64,000 bases of DNA from a virus (lineage: Duplodnaviria > Heunggongvirae > Uroviricota > Caudoviricetes). Where the stretch lies: the IMG/VR virus record IMGVR_UViG_3300020721_000006; one strand, written 5' to 3'. The translations under genes and the position numbers were made by a program. Below, in pieces: positions 19,615-61,424 of the stretch. Every line of letters starts with the position of its first letter. Position 1 is the stretch's first letter. The notes under the pieces are model-generated. The model made no database searches. It worked only from the letters and a program-made list of their open reading frames with translations, and was not told where the DNA came from.

Positions 19615-19973
19615 TGGATAAAGTATACCTAATAGAAACAGATAAACCATTTTCATGTATACCAGGAAACATTACTAGAACTATGTATTCTGTAGATGGC
19701 AAATACCACAGAGAAGATGGCCCTGCTATAGAATGGGTTTATGGTAATGGTGAATGGTATGGTGAAGAATGGTATTTAAATGGCCAAAAACATCGACTAG
19801 ATGGTCCAGCTATATTGTGGTATAATGGTGAAAAACAGTGGTGGGTAAATGGCGATTTACATCGAGAAGATGGACCTGCTATTATATGGGAAGATGGTTC
19901 TAAAGAATGGTGGTTAAATGATAAAGAATACACCGAAAAAAAGTTTAATAAAATAATAAATGCGAAAGTTTGA
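19614..19973 (+). CDS. MORN-variant-like repeat protein, four ~23-aa repeats
   Basis: repeats EWY(L)NG(Q/D)(K/L)HR(L/E)DGPAI(L/I)W. Confidence 0.6.
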   Translation: MDKVYLIETDKPFSCIPGNITRTMYSVDGKYHREDGPAIEWVYGNGEWYGEEWYLNGQKHRLDGPAILWYNGEKQWWVNGDLHREDGPAIIWEDGSKEWWLNDKEYTEKKFNKIINAKV

Positions 19974-19998
19974 CATTTGATAAAACCGATAGTATAAT
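19970..19998 (+). promoter_or_regulatory. consensus promoter TTGACA-N17-TATAAT
   Basis: -35 19970-19975, -10 19993-19998; shares ACCGATAGTATAATATACACATA with promoter at 26982. Confidence 0.6.
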
Positions 19999-20026
19999 AT
20001 ACACATACTAACAAAGAGGGTAGACA

Positions 20027-26981: not shown

Positions 26982-27010
26982 TTGACAAAAGGTAAGACCG
27001 ATAGTATAAT
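26982..27010 (+). promoter_or_regulatory. consensus promoter TTGACA-N17-TATAAT
   Basis: -35 26982-26987, -10 27005-27010. Confidence 0.6.
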
Positions 27011-27044
27011 ATACACATAATTTAAAACAACTAGGAGCAACTCA

Positions 27045-27718: not shown

Positions 27719-28783
27719 ATGACATATTATATTAAGCAAGGCGACATCTTTAAACCTAGTTCAGAAGCATCTTTAGACATTCGTAATGAATTACCAGTTG
27801 GTAATTATACAATTGGTAAAGATATGTATGATAACTTCTTTTTTCAAACAGTTGATTCATTTACATTACCTAATAAACGCTATGGTGATAATACCAAATA
27901 TAGTGAACGTATCTTTAATACTTTCGTAAAAAGAGAAAATGCAACTGGTGTTCTATTAACTGGTGAAAAAGGATCTGGTAAAAGTCTATTAGCTAAATGC
28001 CTTTCTAGCAAAGCAGCTGAGAATAATATTCCAACTATTATTATCAATGCACCTTGGCATGGTGATGGATTTAATAACCTAATTCAAAGCATCCAACAAC
28101 CATGTGTTATATTGTTTGATGAGTTTGAAAAAGTATATGATTCACAACAACAAGAAGCAGTTCTTACACTATTAGATGGTACATTCCCATCTAAGAAATT
28201 GTTTGTGCTAACTTGTAATGATCAGTGGCGTATTGATAGCAATATGCGTAATCGTCCAGGTCGTATTTTTTATTCTATTGAATTTAAAGGTCTATCTGTG
28301 GAATTCATTAAAGAATACTGTGAAGATAAGTTAGAGAATAAAACACATATCGAAACTTTATGTAAAGTATCAACACTTTACGAGCAATTTAACTTTGATA
28401 TGCTTCAAGGAATTGTGGAAGATATGAATCGATATGATGAAAGTCCACAAGAGGCATTGCAATTATTAAATGCTAAACCAGAGTACAGTAATAAAATGTC
28501 ATTTACTTGTGCTATGTCATTAAATGGTAGATGGTTGGAACAAAAAGAATTCTACTCTAATGGCTGGCAGGGCAATCCATTGTCTTCTCGTAAAAGCATT
28601 GAATATCTTAGAGTTGACGAAGATGGTGATGAATTCTGGGATAATTATGAACAGTTTGAACATAATGATTTAATTAATGTTGATGCAACCGCTGGTACTT
28701 TTACATTTAAAAATAACAACGGTAATGTTTTAATCTTGACTAAAAAAACTTATGCGAAACATAATTTCTTTGATGCATTCTAA
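27719..28783 (+). CDS. AAA+ ATPase (classical AAA domain)
   Basis: Walker A GEKGSGKS, Walker B ILFDEFEK, sensor-1 TCND, arginine-finger/sensor-2-like NMRNRPGRIF. Confidence 0.65.
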   Translation: MTYYIKQGDIFKPSSEASLDIRNELPVGNYTIGKDMYDNFFFQTVDSFTLPNKRYGDNTKYSERIFNTFVKRENATGVLLTGEKGSGKSLLAKCLSSKAAENNIPTIIINAPWHGDGFNNLIQSIQQPCVILFDEFEKVYDSQQQEAVLTLLDGTFPSKKLFVLTCNDQWRIDSNMRNRPGRIFYSIEFKGLSVEFIKEYCEDKLENKTHIETLCKVSTLYEQFNFDMLQGIVEDMNRYDESPQEALQLLNAKPEYSNKMSFTCAMSLNGRWLEQKEFYSNGWQGNPLSSRKSIEYLRVDEDGDEFWDNYEQFEHNDLINVDATAGTFTFKNNNGNVLILTKKTYAKHNFFDAF

Positions 28784-29021
28784 GTTAATGAACAACGATA
28801 ATTCTTGGGGATGGTTAGTTGTATTACTACTAGTATTTACTGGCCATCCATTAGCATTGGTGATATTATGACCGCATTATTTATGTTTAGATGTTTTTAT
28901 ACTTAATATTTGGAATGATATTACATGATATTGACTTAAAACTATTTCTTGCTGCACTTGGAATCCTTATGCTAATTTCAGTTGTAACATATGTTGAAGG
29001 ATATATTGAAGGGTATAGCTC

Positions 29022-29468
29022 ATGAAAATATTTGAAATAATTGCAGACAAACTCTCAAAGTCATATATTTTTGAAATGGCATTTGATAGGAAAGATGTTG
29101 AAGCGAGGATTACATCAATTGCTGATCCAATTGTTGAACACTTAGTTAAAGCTTTAAAATGGGAGGATCCAGTTAATTATGAAAAACATTTAGGTGATAT
29201 AAACAATTGGTTATTTCAAATTCAACGATTGAAAATGAAAAACAATAAAAAACCAACTCAACATGATTATTATACTTGGATGTTTACTGATGTAGCACAA
29301 GACGAATTAACAATTAGTAGATTTGTCAAAGGATTACATAGATATCACCATCTACCAATAATTAAAACTGATGATGAAGTTTTTAATATAATTAAGAATA
29401 TTTTATACCAATTAAGTTATGATTTGGCATTGAATAAATTTGATGATATAAATCATTATTTGAAATAG
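29022..29468 (+). CDS. hypothetical protein with CTS-like N-terminus MKIFEIIADK (possibly DUF29-like)
   Basis: ORF; HLVKALKWEDP motif. Confidence 0.5.
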   Translation: MKIFEIIADKLSKSYIFEMAFDRKDVEARITSIADPIVEHLVKALKWEDPVNYEKHLGDINNWLFQIQRLKMKNNKKPTQHDYYTWMFTDVAQDELTISRFVKGLHRYHHLPIIKTDDEVFNIIKNILYQLSYDLALNKFDDINHYLK

Positions 29469-29476
29469 AAAACAAA

Positions 29477-29662
29477 ATGAAAATTTGTAAACGAAATGAA
29501 AAATGGAAATCCTTCAGCGACTACATCTACAAAACTGTTGCATGGAGTGATGATGAATTACCATATTGTCCGATATGTGGAATGTGTTCATATGATTCAG
29601 ATTATAGTAAAACACACGATTATTTTAAATTAAATGAAGGAATTGAAAAATATGAATTTTAA
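29477..29662 (+). CDS. zinc-finger-like small protein
   Basis: CPICGMC motif. Confidence 0.4.
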   Translation: MKICKRNEKWKSFSDYIYKTVAWSDDELPYCPICGMCSYDSDYSKTHDYFKLNEGIEKYEF

Positions 29663-29816
29663 TATATACACAGTACTAAGACTAATTTTATGTGGTGCCT
29701 TTGGGTTCCTAAGTGGATTTTGGTTAACATTACCACATGCAATAATTTTAATTTTGTTGGCAATAGTGATTTCTGCAATAGCAATGTATGAAGGGGAAGC
29801 AAGTGTCAGAAGGTAA
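29652..29816 (+). CDS. small two-TM membrane protein
   Basis: hydrophobic ORF. Confidence 0.35.
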   Translation: MNFNIYTVLRLILCGAFGFLSGFWLTLPHAIILILLAIVISAIAMYEGEASVRR

Positions 29817-29817
29817 T

Positions 29818-29982
29818 ATGTCTACAATTACAATAGATTTACCAGATGAAATACTATTTCAACTAATGTTGTTAGCTCACGAACGTGATATCACATTGAA
29901 TAAATTAATAGAAAGCATTCTGCGTGAATATATTGATAGAATAGAACCATCTGAAGCAGATAATCAATTGACAGGTTGTTAA
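29818..29982 (+). CDS. ribbon-helix-helix (CopG/Arc-like) DNA-binding protein
   Basis: MSTITIDLPDEILFQLMLLAHERDITLNKLIESILREY = beta-strand + two helices typical of RHH. Confidence 0.5.
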   Translation: MSTITIDLPDEILFQLMLLAHERDITLNKLIESILREYIDRIEPSEADNQLTGC

Positions 29983-29996
29983 CAACCTGTTATAAT
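29968..29996 (+). promoter_or_regulatory. consensus promoter whose spacer is a perfect 20-bp palindrome ACAGGTTGTTAACAACCTGT (candidate operator)
   Basis: -35 29968-29973, -10 29991-29996, palindrome 29971-29990. Confidence 0.6.
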
Positions 29997-30024
29997 AGAA
30001 TTTTTAATTTAAACAGAGAATAAT

Positions 30025-30303
30025 ATGAAAATCAAAACTAGAGTTAAATTTTCGGACAAAGGCCATTTATTAGTTGATGTACCATATAAACATGGTAATG
30101 TAACTTGGGCATTGAACTTCCATAGAAATCATTTTGACTGGATCCTTTTTAATAAACCAGACAAGTATAGTCCAACTAGAGTTACATTGGATCATCACAG
30201 TATTTTGAATGGTAAGAAATTACGTTCACAAATGATTTCAAAGGCAGCTGCCTCTCATCAATATGGTGTTTTAGACAAAATCAAGGCTACCATTAAGGGG
30301 TAA
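30025..30303 (+). CDS. hypothetical protein (92 aa)
   Basis: ORF. Confidence 0.5.
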   Translation: MKIKTRVKFSDKGHLLVDVPYKHGNVTWALNFHRNHFDWILFNKPDKYSPTRVTLDHHSILNGKKLRSQMISKAAASHQYGVLDKIKATIKG

Positions 30304-30548: not shown

Positions 30549-30770
30549 ATGAAAGAGAAAATTAAGGAAATAGCTCAACAAGCTGGATTAGTAGCAGATA
30601 ACAATATATTTAGATTAGAACACTTTGCTGAATTAATTGCAATGGATGTTATATCCATTATCACAAGTCAGCAAAGTGATACCGAATTCTTAGATGATTG
30701 GGATTATGGATATGATGCAGCCTTGGATAAAACTGAAAATGACTTAAGAAAATATTTTGGAGTTGATTAA
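30549..30770 (+). CDS. FAEL-HFGV family small protein
   Basis: MKEKIKEIAQQAG ... FAELIAMDV ... KYFGVD. Confidence 0.5.
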   Translation: MKEKIKEIAQQAGLVADNNIFRLEHFAELIAMDVISIITSQQSDTEFLDDWDYGYDAALDKTENDLRKYFGVD

Positions 30771-30822
30771 TGCGAAAACCTAACAGTAATTATAATTACT
30801 GTTAGGGAATTATATAAGTTTA

Positions 30823-31410
30823 TTATAATTTTAATTTTTTAAGATTAAATGGGAGGCGTCCTGGAACACATTCTTCTGGACAGGATGAGCTTAAGAAAGA
30901 ACGTTGTCCATTATTATACCATTTATAATTTTCTCGTGACTTAGTTCTTTGGGCAATTGCATCAGCCGGTTGTTGTTTTCCACGTTTTACTGCTGCATTA
31001 TTTTCTTTATGTTCCGCAGTTTGTGGTCCATAACGTTGCCCTTTCTTAACAGATGCCATATGCTGTTTGTATTCTGCAGTGCGAACTTTTCCAGAATTAG
31101 CAATTGATAATTTTTTAATAGTTTCAATAGAATGCTTACCACTATGACCAGCTTCTTCTTTAAGATTAGCCCATTCAGTGCTTTCAACTACATTCCATAA
31201 ATTACTATAATATAAACCCCATTCTTCAATTTCGCTCATGCTTTGACATTCTTTGAGAATTATTGTTTCAACATCATATCCATGTTTTTTGATGTGTAAT
31301 TTCCATTTAACTCCAGAACCTTTATAATTGTATGGGTCTGGTTTAGTTGTCATTCCTAAATATTTAAGGCCGGTTTTTCTATGTGTTTTTTGGTATAGAT
31401 AAATAATCAT
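30823..31410 (-). CDS. GIY-YIG homing endonuclease with NUMOD3 repeats
   Basis: IYLYQKTH ... KYLGMT nuclease motif; HSIETIKKLS and KHSxE-type repeats. Confidence 0.8.
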   Translation of the reverse strand: MIIYLYQKTHRKTGLKYLGMTTKPDPYNYKGSGVKWKLHIKKHGYDVETIILKECQSMSEIEEWGLYYSNLWNVVESTEWANLKEEAGHSGKHSIETIKKLSIANSGKVRTAEYKQHMASVKKGQRYGPQTAEHKENNAAVKRGKQQPADAIAQRTKSRENYKWYNNGQRSFLSSSCPEECVPGRLPFNLKKLKL

Positions 31411-32614: not shown

Positions 32615-32806
32615 ATGAGCACATTTTATAAAATAGTTTTATCAATAGTTGTAATTTTTATACAACTATTCTTTATAGCACCTTGGTTGGTTTCACAACC
32701 ATCTGATACTACTGTAATAACTGGTTTTGTTGATTTAATTTTATTGATTCCACAAGGATGGCTATTGGGTAAATGGATTGGTTTAACATTCGATAAGGAA
32801 CAATAA
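32615..32806 (+). CDS. two-TM membrane protein
   Basis: start placed downstream of promoter. Confidence 0.4.
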   Translation: MSTFYKIVLSIVVIFIQLFFIAPWLVSQPSDTTVITGFVDLILLIPQGWLLGKWIGLTFDKEQ

Positions 32807-33186
32807 TGGACTTTACGATAGAACAATATTTAGACACCATTGATTACAAAATTGGTGATGGATCTAAATTTATGTGGTCTTGTTTTGGACCAAAAGCATA
32901 TCAATATACATATGCCGCAATAAACTTTACAAGCTATGTCTTCGAATTAAATATGATTTTTGATACAGAAACTAGAATTGTATATGTAGTTGAGTTTTGT
33001 GTTGTTGAAGGCGATAAAGTATACAAATGTTTCAATCCAGAATTTAAAGAAGCATACGATACAGAAGAAAAAATCAAGAATGAAAGCCTTGGGTTTGAGC
33101 CTATTGAATATGAAGATTATACTGATAGAACACATGAGTTTAAAAATTTAGTAAACAGTTATTTTAACAAAATAGAGATTGTGTAA
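32806..33186 (+). CDS. hypothetical protein (126 aa)
   Basis: ORF. Confidence 0.5.
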   Translation: MDFTIEQYLDTIDYKIGDGSKFMWSCFGPKAYQYTYAAINFTSYVFELNMIFDTETRIVYVVEFCVVEGDKVYKCFNPEFKEAYDTEEKIKNESLGFEPIEYEDYTDRTHEFKNLVNSYFNKIEIV

Positions 33187-34596: not shown

Positions 34597-35562
34597 TTAT
34601 TTTGGATGATTGCGATTATAAGTTTCTTTATATTTTAATCTTGACTGCAGTTTTTGTTCGGCGGTCCTACCACTTTTTGTTTGTTTTTCTTTCCGTTTTC
34701 GTTCATTCTCCTGTTCAGGAGTTCTAGCAGCATGAGAATTTTTTAGTTTTAGTGTTATTACTAATTTTTCTTCTGGTGTTTTAGCATCAAATGTAGCTTT
34801 GCGCTTTGCTATAATATCTAATTTTTCTTCTAACGGTTTTGCCTCGATGGTTGCTTTAAGTGTTGTTTTTTGTTTTTCTATTTGAGTTTGTTTTTCTTCA
34901 GGTGACCTAGCATTCTTTGTTTTCCATTCTTTTTGTTTAGTTTCCAATTTTTCTTCTGATGTTCTATTAATTTTAGCTAATCTTTGTTTTTCTTTCGTTG
35001 CTAATTTTTCCTCTGGAGATTTTGCATCTTCTGTAGCTTTTTTCTTTGCATTGACCAATAATCTTTCTGCTGGGGTTCTTGAAGTTTTTGCTAGTCGTTG
35101 CTTTTCTTTAATTGTATAGTTTTCTTCTGCACTTCTAGCTGCTTCTGTAGCTTTTTTCTTTTCTGCAATTAATGTTTTTTCATACAAACATTTAGCCTTT
35201 CTAGTTATTGCAGTTTTTGCAATAGAATCTTCAGTAGCATGAAATTTATTACCACCGTTATTTTTATTAAGCCAATATGGACTTTTCGCTGCATTAATTC
35301 TTGTTAAGAACTTATGTTCCCAAGCGACTGTATCTTTTCTAGTTTTAAATATTTTTCGTATTTGAACAGAAAATAATTCCTTGCCATGTAGAGCAATTAG
35401 ATTTTTTATTTCTTTTGATGATGTAAAATATGTCACCCAAAACTCAGTTGGATTTGCCACATTTTTTCTACTATTTGCATACCTACATCCGTAATAACGT
35501 TGGCCGGTTATTAGAAATGTTATGCAATATGTATACGGGACATAAATAAGTTTGTTGGTCAT
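34597..35562 (-). CDS. GIY-YIG-like endonuclease N-domain fused to long array of ~25-aa RTPEEKL/KEKQRLAK repeats
   Basis: N-terminus homologous to ORF 3569 (PYTY ... TGQ.YYG ... WEHK ... WLNKNNGG). Confidence 0.65.
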   Translation of the reverse strand: MTNKLIYVPYTYCITFLITGQRYYGCRYANSRKNVANPTEFWVTYFTSSKEIKNLIALHGKELFSVQIRKIFKTRKDTVAWEHKFLTRINAAKSPYWLNKNNGGNKFHATEDSIAKTAITRKAKCLYEKTLIAEKKKATEAARSAEENYTIKEKQRLAKTSRTPAERLLVNAKKKATEDAKSPEEKLATKEKQRLAKINRTSEEKLETKQKEWKTKNARSPEEKQTQIEKQKTTLKATIEAKPLEEKLDIIAKRKATFDAKTPEEKLVITLKLKNSHAARTPEQENERKRKEKQTKSGRTAEQKLQSRLKYKETYNRNHPK

Positions 35563-39393: not shown

Positions 39394-39843
39394 TTATTTT
39401 CCTCTTGTTAGTTTACTTAATAATAAAAAATTGTCATAACTTTGTTGTAAAGCTGGGTTCTCTAATATTTCTTCAGCTTCTTTAATCATTTCTGAAACAC
39501 CAGCTCTCACAGCTTCCATTATAGTAGAAGTTTTCAATCTACACAAGTCTTCCCCATAGACTTCTCTCATACGGTCCCATGCTTCTTTTTGTTCTTGTGT
39601 ATATGGTGGTATTTCTGGAGTATAAGTCAACTTATCTACAATAATAGCAGCAATGCGGTCTTCTGCATAACTTCCAGCAGCAATCATTGGTGCAAATGCT
39701 GGTTCAATGTTATATCGTCTAGATCTAGACCCTGGTTTGCATACTGTTAGATGAGTGCCTTCTGGCCAAGAATCGTTAAATTCATTGTCATATTCACGTG
39801 CAGGAATATATTTTCTGCCTTTTTTGATAAAATAAGTAGTCAT
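39394..39843 (-). CDS. hypothetical protein (149 aa)
   Basis: ORF. Confidence 0.5.
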   Translation of the reverse strand: MTTYFIKKGRKYIPAREYDNEFNDSWPEGTHLTVCKPGSRSRRYNIEPAFAPMIAAGSYAEDRIAAIIVDKLTYTPEIPPYTQEQKEAWDRMREVYGEDLCRLKTSTIMEAVRAGVSEMIKEAEEILENPALQQSYDNFLLLSKLTRGK

Positions 39844-39896
39844 TGATGGTTCCTGTAATCGTTAAAGTTCTATTATAACAATTACAGGAATAGATG

Positions 39897-40160
39897 TCAA
39901 GTAGAAAACTTGATTGTGTAGAATGTGTAATCTGATGGTTTAATATAAGCTGTTATATAATATTCGTATCCAAGGGTATATGGATGGTAATGTTTAACTA
40001 CCTCTATATGTATACAATGATTACTAACCCATTGTCCTTCTTCAGAATTTAGCCAAATATCTAATATTTCATTCTGTGTCGGTGATGTCATATATATTAC
40101 CACTCTATGAAATATTTTTCTTTCATACACGGAGTCGTTAAATATCTTAAAATTATCCAT
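39897..40160 (-). CDS. degenerate WF-family-like protein (YTFYTIKFST)
   Basis: ORF. Confidence 0.4.
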   Translation of the reverse strand: MDNFKIFNDSVYERKIFHRVVIYMTSPTQNEILDIWLNSEEGQWVSNHCIHIEVVKHYHPYTLGYEYYITAYIKPSDYTFYTIKFST

Positions 40161-55295: not shown

Positions 55296-56576
55296 ATGAA
55301 AACAATAATTAAATCAAGTCAACATAATATCAAATTTGCTAATATTGGTAAACAACTGATATTAAAAGAATTCATTACCGAATATGATCGGGTATTGTGG
55401 TGGTTTGTTGATTATTTATGGAATAATAAAATCATTTGGGGCAATAATAGAACTTTAGATATCAAAAATAATAAATTAGATGTTCCAAGTTTTATTTCTA
55501 CCACTGATATCGATTTAATTACCGATCTTTCAGCAAGGGCAATTAAATTAGCGTCAGGGGAAGCTCTGGCAATTATCAAAAGTAGAACAGAAAAACGAAG
55601 AAAACAATTATTTGTTCTCGCTAAACAAATGCGTGCTGGTGATAAATCTATTTCAAAATTACAATCAAAAATTGATAGTAATCCATTATCAAAACCAACA
55701 CGAAATAGCAATAATTTAGTAGCAAATTTGGATAGTAATTGCTGTAAATATATCCCAGATACCACTGGTATCTTTGATGGATGGCTGAAATTATCATCAC
55801 TTGGTAAAAGGTATGGACATATTTATATACCAATTAAAACAACAAGGCATTCAAATCAATTAGCCAAGAAAGGTTATAAAATGATTACTAGTTGGCAGAT
55901 TTCTACTAACACTTTATATTCCAGATGGGAAACTACACGAGAGAAATCAACTGGTAGTAAAATCATTGGTGCAGACCAAGGATATGTTACTTGCTTATCA
56001 TTAAGTGATGGACAAACAACTAGTGCTGATATGCATGGTCATGATTTACATAGTATAATCAATAAGTTATCATATAAAAAGAAAGGCAGTAATGGCTTTA
56101 AACGAGTACAGGAACACCGAACAAATTATATCAATTGGTCCATAAATCAATTGGATTTATCAAATATAAAAGAACTCAGATTAGAAAAGTTATTTCAAAT
56201 GAGAAAAGGTTCTAATATGGGAAGAAATTTAAGTCATTGGACTTATACACAAATCAATGCACAGATAATGAAGCGATGTGAAGAACTGGGTGTCCCAGTA
56301 ATCGAGCAATCGGCTAGTTATAGAAGTCAAAGATGTAGTGATTGTGGATGGACCCAAAAATCAAATAGGAAGGGAAAGGAGTTTATATGCAATCAATGTG
56401 GCGTATGCCATGATGCCGATATAAATGGCGCCCTAAATCATGAAGCCGACTTATATCGGCTCCCTGTTGGTTTTTGGCAGAACAAATTTAATATCAAGGG
56501 GTTCTATTGGACTTCTAGAATGGTATTAGATTTATCTGGTGCGGAGCTTATAGTCCCGCATGTACAAAATGTATGA
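55296..56576 (+). CDS. tnpB: TnpB (IS200/IS605 OrfB-type RuvC-like RNA-guided nuclease homologue), no adjacent tnpA
   Basis: RuvC-I IGADQGYVTC, Zn finger CSDCGW ... CNQCGVC, RuvC-III DADINGALN; 426 aa. Confidence 0.8.
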   Translation: MKTIIKSSQHNIKFANIGKQLILKEFITEYDRVLWWFVDYLWNNKIIWGNNRTLDIKNNKLDVPSFISTTDIDLITDLSARAIKLASGEALAIIKSRTEKRRKQLFVLAKQMRAGDKSISKLQSKIDSNPLSKPTRNSNNLVANLDSNCCKYIPDTTGIFDGWLKLSSLGKRYGHIYIPIKTTRHSNQLAKKGYKMITSWQISTNTLYSRWETTREKSTGSKIIGADQGYVTCLSLSDGQTTSADMHGHDLHSIINKLSYKKKGSNGFKRVQEHRTNYINWSINQLDLSNIKELRLEKLFQMRKGSNMGRNLSHWTYTQINAQIMKRCEELGVPVIEQSASYRSQRCSDCGWTQKSNRKGKEFICNQCGVCHDADINGALNHEADLYRLPVGFWQNKFNIKGFYWTSRMVLDLSGAELIVPHVQNV

Positions 56577-61373: not shown

Positions 61374-61424
61374 TTTACAAAGTCCTATTAAAGTGGTATA
61401 ATACTATTTTAATAGGACTATTTT
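61374..61424 (+). promoter_or_regulatory. TTTACA-N17-TATAAT promoter embedded in a 12-bp inverted repeat AGTCCTATTAAA / TTTAATAGGACT followed by ATTTTAT
   Basis: -35 61374-61379, -10 61397-61402; stem 61381-61392 / 61408-61419. Confidence 0.45.

Follow-up and report, generated by a model that had tools for sequence, protein, structure and literature searches.

A Promoter with a Palindromic Spacer in a Large Uncultured Phage: A Candidate PeSL-Like Promoter/Stem-Loop Cassette at a Mosaic Junction

Introduction

A consensus promoter that begins inside the last codons of a gene for a small RHH-type (CopG/Arc-type) protein, and whose spacer is taken up by a perfect palindrome, raises the question of whether the palindrome is the operator of that protein or something else. 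The locus lies in a 64,000-nt stretch of Caudoviricetes DNA (IMG/VR record IMGVR_UViG_3300020721_000006), which we refer to in its entirety as the window. We compared the locus with its relatives, with the other promoters of the window, and with known phage systems in which a promoter and an inverted repeat share the same DNA. The features at issue are as follows.

29818–29982, + strand: gene for a small RHH-fold protein, the last of the upstream transcription unit (ATG 29818, TAA 29980–29982)
29968–29973, + strand: −35 hexamer TTGACA, within the RHH coding sequence
29971–29990, + strand: perfect 20-bp palindrome ACAGGTTGTTAACAACCTGT, with the stop codon TAA central
29988–29996, + strand: extended −10 element TGTTATAAT (TGn plus TATAAT 29991–29996)

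Results

Layout of the Promoter and Palindrome

The coordinates that the first-pass annotation had given for the ORF, both hexamers, and the palindrome were all re-checked and are correct, and the stop codon does lie inside the palindrome, at its center. The description of the spacer as a palindrome needs a small amendment: the palindrome fills the whole 17-nt spacer (29974–29990), but it also takes in the last 3 nt of the −35 box. The final five RHH codons (QLTGC) and the stop are made of the −35 box and the left palindrome arm, and the TGT of the extended −10 element doubles as the outer end of the right arm. With the outer 3 bp given by the ACA of the −35 box and this TGT, and the left arm set by coding, the unexplained excess in the palindrome is its inner 7 bp (7–8 nt of the right arm).

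Shuffled windows are expected to hold 0.17 perfect palindromes with arms of at least 10 bp each, and about 16% of shuffles have one, so the palindrome by itself is just mildly unusual; by our estimate, its in-register position inside one of 16–25 promoter spacers is improbable (P < 1e-3). Neither a further copy with up to 3 mismatches nor a pair of half-sites was found in the 64-kb window, and an exact 20-mer scan of IMG/VR gave no match. The single exact match in JGI metagenomes lies inside a histidine-kinase gene (codons EQVVNNL) and was set aside as chance.

The Promoter Family and Its Phage

The window is AT-rich (about 31% G+C) and carries tail-fiber genes, homing endonucleases, a transposase-like gene, and numerous small ORFs. 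Identical or close relatives of the RHH protein were found on metagenomic contigs of up to 334–356 kb, which points to a large uncultured phage as the source. When cultured phage genomes were searched at the nucleotide and protein levels, the region, the RHH protein, the consensus of its family, and a large neighboring ORF all came back without relatives; the sole query with cultured homologs, distant ones at no more than 50% identity, was an AAA ATPase neighbor, whose closest matches include proteins of a Microbacterium phage and of jumbo phages of 350–378 kb. An Rfam scan of the whole window gave zero families.

Perfect TTGACA-N17-TATAAT promoters occur 16 times in the window against 0.08 expected by chance, and the same pattern with at most one mismatch occurs 25 times against 2.2 expected. 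Thirteen of the 16 perfect promoters are + strand promoters located between 12.3 and 32.6 kb, amid small ORFs, and at most of the consensus promoters of the window an ATG follows about 25–40 nt past the −10 box. Those at 19970 and 26982 have a 23-nt stretch in common around the −10 box (ACCGATAGTATAATATACACATA). A perfect palindromic spacer is unique to the promoter at 29968–29996 within this family. That promoter is very probably real, judging from its membership in a family of consensus early promoters, from hexamers that are kept in every relative, and from a 17-nt spacing that is mostly kept. The transcription unit that it would serve, and the nearest perfect consensus promoter upstream, are as follows.

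26982–27010, + strand: nearest upstream perfect consensus promoter, from the consensus promoter scan
29999–30024, + strand: 5′ leader of the downstream unit
30025–30303, + strand: first gene under the promoter, 92 aa, without a family match

From the spacing, transcription would start near 30003. The leader opens with AATTTTTAATTTAA (29999–30012), the stretch that in relatives flanks insertions of a lipoprotein gene on both sides, and it contains a purine-rich AGAGA (30015–30019) that makes a weak Shine-Dalgarno sequence. The ATG of the 92-aa gene stands 28 nt past the −10 box, and its protein found no match in Pfam, PHROG, or NCBIfam.

Hexamers and Palindrome among Relatives

Eighteen related loci were recovered, giving with the window a comparison set of 19 sequences. 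Both hexamers are kept in all 19, and the 17-nt spacer is kept in all types except that of L008 and L024. The palindrome itself takes four states.

Window, L006/7, L010–12, L022, L023, L027–29: perfect palindrome with a 17-nt spacer, intact
L001: TTGACAGGTTGTTAGAAGTCTGTTATAAT, right arm changed at 4/8 bases
L008/9, L024–26: TTGACAGGTTGCTAAAAACCTTATAAT, arms down to 5 bp, spacer 15 nt
L002–5 (protein 67% identical): inverted repeat absent

Genes downstream of the promoter also differ. L008–L012 and L024–L026 have an inserted lipoprotein gene, complete with a leader of its own, immediately past the −10 box and ahead of the 92-aa gene, and the insertions are bordered on both sides by a repeat of about 14 nt, AATTTTTAAYTTAA. 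In L002–L005, a different gene, of 68 aa, comes first, and the homolog of the 92-aa gene lies farther downstream.

Two further comparisons locate the boundaries more finely. L023 and L024 are identical at 610 of 611 positions up to TTGACAGGTTG in the left palindrome arm; beyond it, the next 60 nt are 78% identical and are followed by an unrelated gene, so that homology between the two breaks exactly within the palindrome. The window and L006 are 93% identical over a 60-nt stretch running from the right arm up to the ATG and 75% identical over the flanking 600 and 400 nt (binomial P = 3e-4), and a 29-nt core is 100% identical between genomes with flanks 25% diverged. By these alignments, the promoter cassette is either conserved or else exchanged as a unit, and it is shown to be a recombination junction in this clade.

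A Hairpin in Read-Through RNA

The inverted repeat lies upstream of the start site and would thus be transcribed solely by polymerases arriving from the upstream unit; the promoter at 26982 is the likely origin of the read-through transcripts that would cross the RHH gene and the hairpin. In such RNA, the palindrome extends to a 10-bp stem (29969–29992) with a UUAA loop and a predicted energy of about −12.8 kcal/mol, and the local fold around it has z = −3.1. Corresponding stem energies are −5.7 kcal/mol in L001 (weak), −4.7 in L008/L024 (weak), and −1.0 in the outgroup L002 (absent), so the hairpin is not conserved across the clade. Of the four right-arm changes in L001, three are wobble-compatible, in keeping with a stem in RNA; the proportion is not significant (P about 0.3 by our estimate). 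Being perfect, the palindrome does not by itself separate an RNA role from a DNA role.

Long stem-loops overlap two other promoters of the window.

61381–61419: stem-loop at promoter 61374, its 18-bp stem (2 G·T pairs) overlapping the −10 box
39850–39890, − strand: promoter stem-loop of 15 bp with 1 G·T pair, overlapping the spacer and −10 box of promoter 39900

Both are unrelated in sequence to the palindrome, and their G·T pairs fit the sense strand alone, which indicates structure at the RNA level. The gene downstream of the stem-loop at 61381–61419 encodes a nuclease for which homologs were found. Of the 25 promoters, three to four overlap a strong stem of 9 bp or more, where 1.2 would be expected (Poisson P = 0.03–0.12), and a stem-loop does not appear to be a general component of the promoters of this phage.

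The palindrome hairpin was also considered as a canonical terminator and rejected, there being no U-tract after the stem: the tail reads UAUAAUAG / TATAATAG, and TTTTT begins 9 nt later. A terminator scan of the window gave 11 terminator-like sites, the palindrome hairpin not among them; canonical terminators are present elsewhere in the window.

Likeness to PeSLs

PeSLs of T4-type phages combine near-perfect sigma-70 promoters with a stem-loop and are known from RB49/phi1, T4/PST, and KVP40/nt-1 (Arbiol et al. 2010, PMC2839356; Comeau et al. 2014, PMC4122927). The commonest places for the stem-loop are between −35 and −10 or overlapping the −10 box (PMC2839356). They cluster in hyperplastic regions rich in small ORFans, reporter assays show them to terminate transcription, and they are recombination sites, one RB49 crossover having been mapped within the loop (PMC2839356, PMC4122927).

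The locus studied here resembles PeSLs in several respects. It has a near-perfect TTGACA-N17-TATAAT early promoter with a stem-loop between −35 and −10; the stem-loop has the upstream stop codon in its loop and lies ahead of the downstream Shine-Dalgarno sequence and ATG; the setting is one of small ORFan genes in a region dense in such promoters; and breakpoints of indels and replacements between relatives fall inside the element, here in the stem-loop. It also departs from them. The stem is not of the Gn-loop-Cn type; there is no AT-rich tract 5′ of the −35 box, where the 60 nt are RHH coding sequence with an AT content of 68%, equal to the window average; no U-run follows the stem; and some relatives have a weak hairpin or lack it. 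Unlike in RB49/phi1, only a minority of the promoters of this phage have a stem-loop, and the phage may not be of the T4 type.

Weighing these points, we regard a composite promoter/stem-loop cassette of the PeSL kind, as in T4-type phages, as the best explanation of the feature and put its chance of being correct at about even; by analogy, the element probably works like a PeSL and would be a member of that group. The cassette would be situated in a variable early region of a large virulent phage. Host RNA polymerase of the sigma-70 type would, with high confidence, begin early transcription at the promoter, the first gene of the unit being the one from 30025 onward. RNA reading through from the upstream unit is predicted to fold into the 10-bp hairpin, the loop of which would carry the RHH stop codon. 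The analogy with PeSLs suggests, with moderate confidence, that the hairpin attenuates read-through or protects and stabilizes the 3′ end, and either effect would insulate the upstream unit from the downstream one. The conserved cassette would serve at the same time as a recombination junction for swapping downstream genes, and the RHH gene would be a mere upstream neighbor with its 3′ end overprinted by the promoter.

Another arrangement of promoter and hairpin comes from the control of T4 e (lysozyme) and soc, reportedly described by McPheeters and coworkers in 1986, where a promoter inside the hairpin is said to free the ribosome-binding site. The present stem-loop is like that one in being formable solely in read-through RNA, with the promoter start inside or after the stem, and promoter 39900 on the − strand fits the T4 e/soc type closely, with a Shine-Dalgarno sequence in its right arm. 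The hairpin at 29971–29990, unlike T4 e/soc, contains an upstream stop codon rather than a downstream Shine-Dalgarno sequence, so translational masking does not apply there.

The Palindrome as a By-Product

Among the alternatives to a PeSL-like cassette, the one that fares best, although we consider it rather unlikely, is that the palindrome has no selected function. It would be a lineage-specific by-product, arising by drift or by template-switch correction of a quasi-palindrome like that of L001; only the promoter would matter, and the by-product would persist since the cassette is conserved or exchanged as a unit. The distribution among relatives is what such a history would leave: L002–L005, the outgroup, lack the palindrome, L001 has a broken one, and L008/L024 have a decayed one, yet all keep the hexamers. 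All four differences between the window and L001 fall in the unconstrained right arm, and a rate of 4/8 is no slower than the neutral divergence of about 25%. Much of the palindrome is accounted for by other demands, its outer 3 bp by the promoter elements and its left arm by coding, and a palindrome of this size turns up somewhere in about 16% of shuffled windows. The identity between the window and L006 clades has a P of just about 0.04–0.1 under neutrality. What a by-product explains poorly is the exact fit in a promoter spacer, for which our estimate is below 1e-3, the complete identity of the 29-nt core despite a 25% difference in the flanks, and the presence of two more promoters in the window with long stem-loops.

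The RHH Protein and Its Family

An operator for the RHH protein presupposes an RHH protein. The gene encodes 54 aa, MSTITIDLPDEILFQLMLLAHERDITLNKLIESILREYIDRIEPSEADNQLTGC, and has AAGG 4–5 nt 5′ of its ATG; alternative in-frame starts are GTG 29803 and ATG 29788, and its relatives are called from the equivalent of 29803. Close relatives all end in QLTG(C). Searches of Pfam, PHROGs, NCBIfam, and PDB gave sub-threshold matches only, nearly all of them to RHH families: CopG_antitoxin (1.1e-3), RHH_1 (0.012), an Arc-like PHROG (7e-4), PDB 9kkd (4.6e-3), and ORF56. None of the curated cut-offs was reached, the scores being 20.1 bits against a cut-off of 28 for PF12441, 16.0 against 20.5 for PF01402, 11.8 against 26 for PF07878, and 15.9 against 50 for the NCBIfam ORF56 model.

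In an AlphaFold2 model (pLDDT 82), residues 1–9 are extended and residues 10–22 and 27–42 form helices. The top Foldseek matches of the model in PDB are almost all RHH proteins, the leaders having TM scores of 0.65–0.77 and rmsd of 1.1–1.7 Å, and they include StnY, ORF56, CopA_SO, the PutA DNA-binding domain, Arc, and CopG; the Arc/Mnt-type repressor structures 1par and 1bdv are also among the hits. The RHH (CopG/Arc-type) fold that the first-pass annotation had read from the pattern of strand and helices is thus borne out by the sub-threshold sequence matches together with the model and its PDB matches, and the fold assignment stands on this predicted structure.

The protein is one of a large, uncurated family marked by an invariant AH..DITLN motif; the family numbers 663 representatives when clustered at 50% identity and no fewer than 2802 clusters at 90%. 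Members were found at 417 IMG/VR viral loci, whereas 185,579 species genomes yielded just 2 contigs, both from uncultured-genome bins, and the family is essentially phage-confined. It is uniformly acidic, with a median pI of 4.4 and a median charge of −7.4; the window protein has a pI of 4.2 and a net charge of −7. In an alignment, residues T3, T5, and D7 fall at the DNA-facing strand positions of Arc and CopG, and none of them is basic. Most family members have a strand arginine, one register position or turn earlier, where the clade of the window has methionine. At the start of helix 2, T26, N28, and K29 presumably correspond to the phosphate-contact positions of Arc. In some phages, the RHH domain forms the C-terminal part of proteins of about 170 aa, whose N-terminal domain is homologous to the window ORF 32806–33186, a fusion that hints at a protein-partner role for the RHH domain.

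The best available sequence similarity is to the RHH domains of HicB/BrnA-type antitoxins (PF12441, CopG_antitoxin), although all matches, including those of 24/30 family members, are below the Pfam cut-off, and many members carry the JGI label "predicted HicB family." Unlike the HicB/BrnA type II antitoxins, the protein has no toxin-like partner, and its family is essentially restricted to phages. A type II toxin-antitoxin pair was considered and rejected: the 92-aa neighbor has no toxin match and varies among relatives, and a promoter lies between the two genes.

Protein and Palindrome in Relatives

Arc and Mnt of P22 immI are basic RHH repressors with Gln/Asn/Arg on the strand, and their arrangement at Pant is the natural model for an RHH protein bound to the palindrome as a dimer of dimers, where it would occlude the promoter and shut off or time the downstream block. 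We consider this model improbable for the present locus. [quoted passage not shown]

Against it stands a comparison in which the protein stays the same and the site does not. The identical protein P0002 is found beside a perfect site (L023, L027–L029) and beside a decayed one (L024–L026). The strand STITVD is paired with an intact palindrome in L022 and with a broken one in L001, whose right arm is changed at four of eight bases, and P0014, which retains the strand arginine, has no palindrome. Distant family members lie in overlapping gene arrays, and their genes end without a promoter or palindrome. Nor were palindromes enriched near RHH-family genes across 80 viral loci, where their density was 0.08 per kb on the 5′ flank, 0.69 on the 3′ flank, and 0.90 elsewhere. 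Across the sequences compared, protein and site neither co-occur nor co-vary, unlike in Arc/Mnt.

The protein itself is also ill matched to the model. Its pI and that of its family contrast with values of about 10 for Arc and CopG, and its strand offers T, T, and D in place of the Gln/Asn/Arg of Arc/Mnt, with no basic residue. The site is at the 3′ end of the gene and not, as in Arc/Mnt, at its own promoter; the 64-kb window holds no second site; and the fusions mentioned above hint at a protein partner. The operator-within-promoter arrangement that the first-pass annotation had proposed is therefore unsupported as a repressor-operator link, P0002 and STITVD each occurring with both kinds of site and distant members being palindrome-free. 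Nor did any comparison run back the suggestion that the RHH protein represses or times the downstream block, given an acidic family and the unrelated repeats at two other promoters.

A variant confined to this clade would have its acidic RHH protein gain an operator from its own last codons and the spacer of the next early promoter, as a self-contained, recombination-mobile cassette timing an early block, in a family that otherwise appears to have no association with DNA sites; we judge it just as improbable.

A DNA-level role without the RHH protein, in which the palindrome would be the site of another dimeric protein of phage or host or would, under negative supercoiling, extrude as a cruciform and so render the promoter supercoiling-sensitive, is very unlikely, since arms of 10 bp are short for cruciform extrusion, neither a candidate binding protein nor a second copy of the site is found in the window, and the site is not conserved in L001, L008, or L002. 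In its favor are the perfect dyad with an AT-rich center (TTAA) inside the spacer and the precedent of an engineered E. coli promoter in which extrusion of a palindrome as a cruciform brought about repression (Horwitz and Loeb 1988, as cited in PMC6060812).

Discussion

For the RHH family, which is large, uncurated, phage-specific, and acidic, the results mean that automatic annotation of its members as repressors or antitoxins is unwarranted. For the phage, if the reading of the locus as a PeSL-like cassette is true, such cassettes and recombination junctions would reach beyond cultured T4-type coliphages and vibriophages to uncultured phages of about 330–360 kb. This would come as no surprise, and it would help to annotate transcription units and mosaic boundaries in such genomes.

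RHH Family, Gene Fusion, and Gene Linkage

The ribbon-helix-helix (RHH) protein encoded at 29818-29982 is a member of an uncurated and very large family with an invariant AH..DITLN motif, comprising at least 2802 clusters (alignment A2), which is nearly restricted to phages and acidic throughout (median pI 4.4). The name "predicted HicB family RNase H-like nuclease," which some sources give to members, is not justified by their sequences. Both this family and the protein encoded by the ORF at 32806-33186 lack a Pfam or PHROG family. Fused proteins of ~170 aa in other phages (P0110, P0048, and P0073; loci L045, L058, L059, and L061) carry the RHH domain as their C-terminal part, and the N-terminal domain of these fusions is homologous to the 32806-33186 ORF (BLASTP, 3e-9). 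The fusion suggests that the RHH family and this uncharacterized protein act together.

Comparison of positions 1-2689 of the distant relative L016 (an 85-kb contig encoding a 62-aa RHH protein) with 27719-29982 of the window showed that in L016, too, the RHH gene follows an AAA ATPase gene at a distance of a few genes. Linkage of the AAA ATPase and RHH genes is kept more widely than the palindrome at 29971-29990.

Promoter-Associated Stem-Loops and Shared Promoter Sequence

Two promoters elsewhere in the window are combined with stem-loops:

39850-39900, minus strand, perfect consensus promoter with stem-loop
61374-61429, promoter TTTACA-N17-TATAAT with stem-loop
61447-62184, PD-(D/E)XK nuclease gene downstream of the 61374 promoter and stem-loop

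The stem-loop at 61381-61419 has an 18-bp stem with two G·T pairs and a loop lying within the -10 box, and is followed by ATTTTATAAT. The element resembles the subclass of promoter-early stem-loops (PeSLs) of T4-type phages whose stem-loop and -10 box overlap, and it looks like a candidate PeSL of that subclass ahead of the nuclease gene.

At 39850-39900, the upstream gene has its stop codon inside the -35 box, and a 15-bp stem-loop extends across the spacer, -10 box, and leader, its right arm containing the Shine-Dalgarno sequence (AGGA) of the gene at 39394-39843. By analogy with T4 e and soc, which this element resembles, masking of the Shine-Dalgarno sequence would be limited to read-through RNA.

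The consensus promoters at 19970-20010 and 26982-27022 have in common an identical 23-nt stretch, ACCGATAGTATAATATACACATA, covering the spacer end, -10 box, and start region, which suggests that promoter cassettes have been duplicated or exchanged.

Mobile Genes and a Second Palindrome

A perfect 28-bp palindrome, CCTAACAGTAATTATAATTACTGTTAGG (30779-30806), lies in the 52-nt gap between two convergent genes:

30549-30770, plus strand, 73-aa gene converging on the GIY-YIG gene
30823-31410, minus strand, GIY-YIG homing-endonuclease gene

In the relatives L006 and L023, the endonuclease gene is absent and the AAA_33 kinase gene directly follows the 73-aa gene; the palindrome thus lies at the edge of a mobile insertion, and it may be a bidirectional terminator. 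The minus-strand ORF at 34597-35562 is the second to match homing-endonuclease PHROG phrog_314, and therefore at least two homing-endonuclease mobile genes lie inside 5 kb of the region.

A 426-aa ORF (55296-56576) matches phage "transposase" PHROGs, and next to the nuclease gene in relatives lies a gene that encodes OrfB_IS605 and Cas12f1-like TNB domains. This large phage may carry a TnpB-like element.
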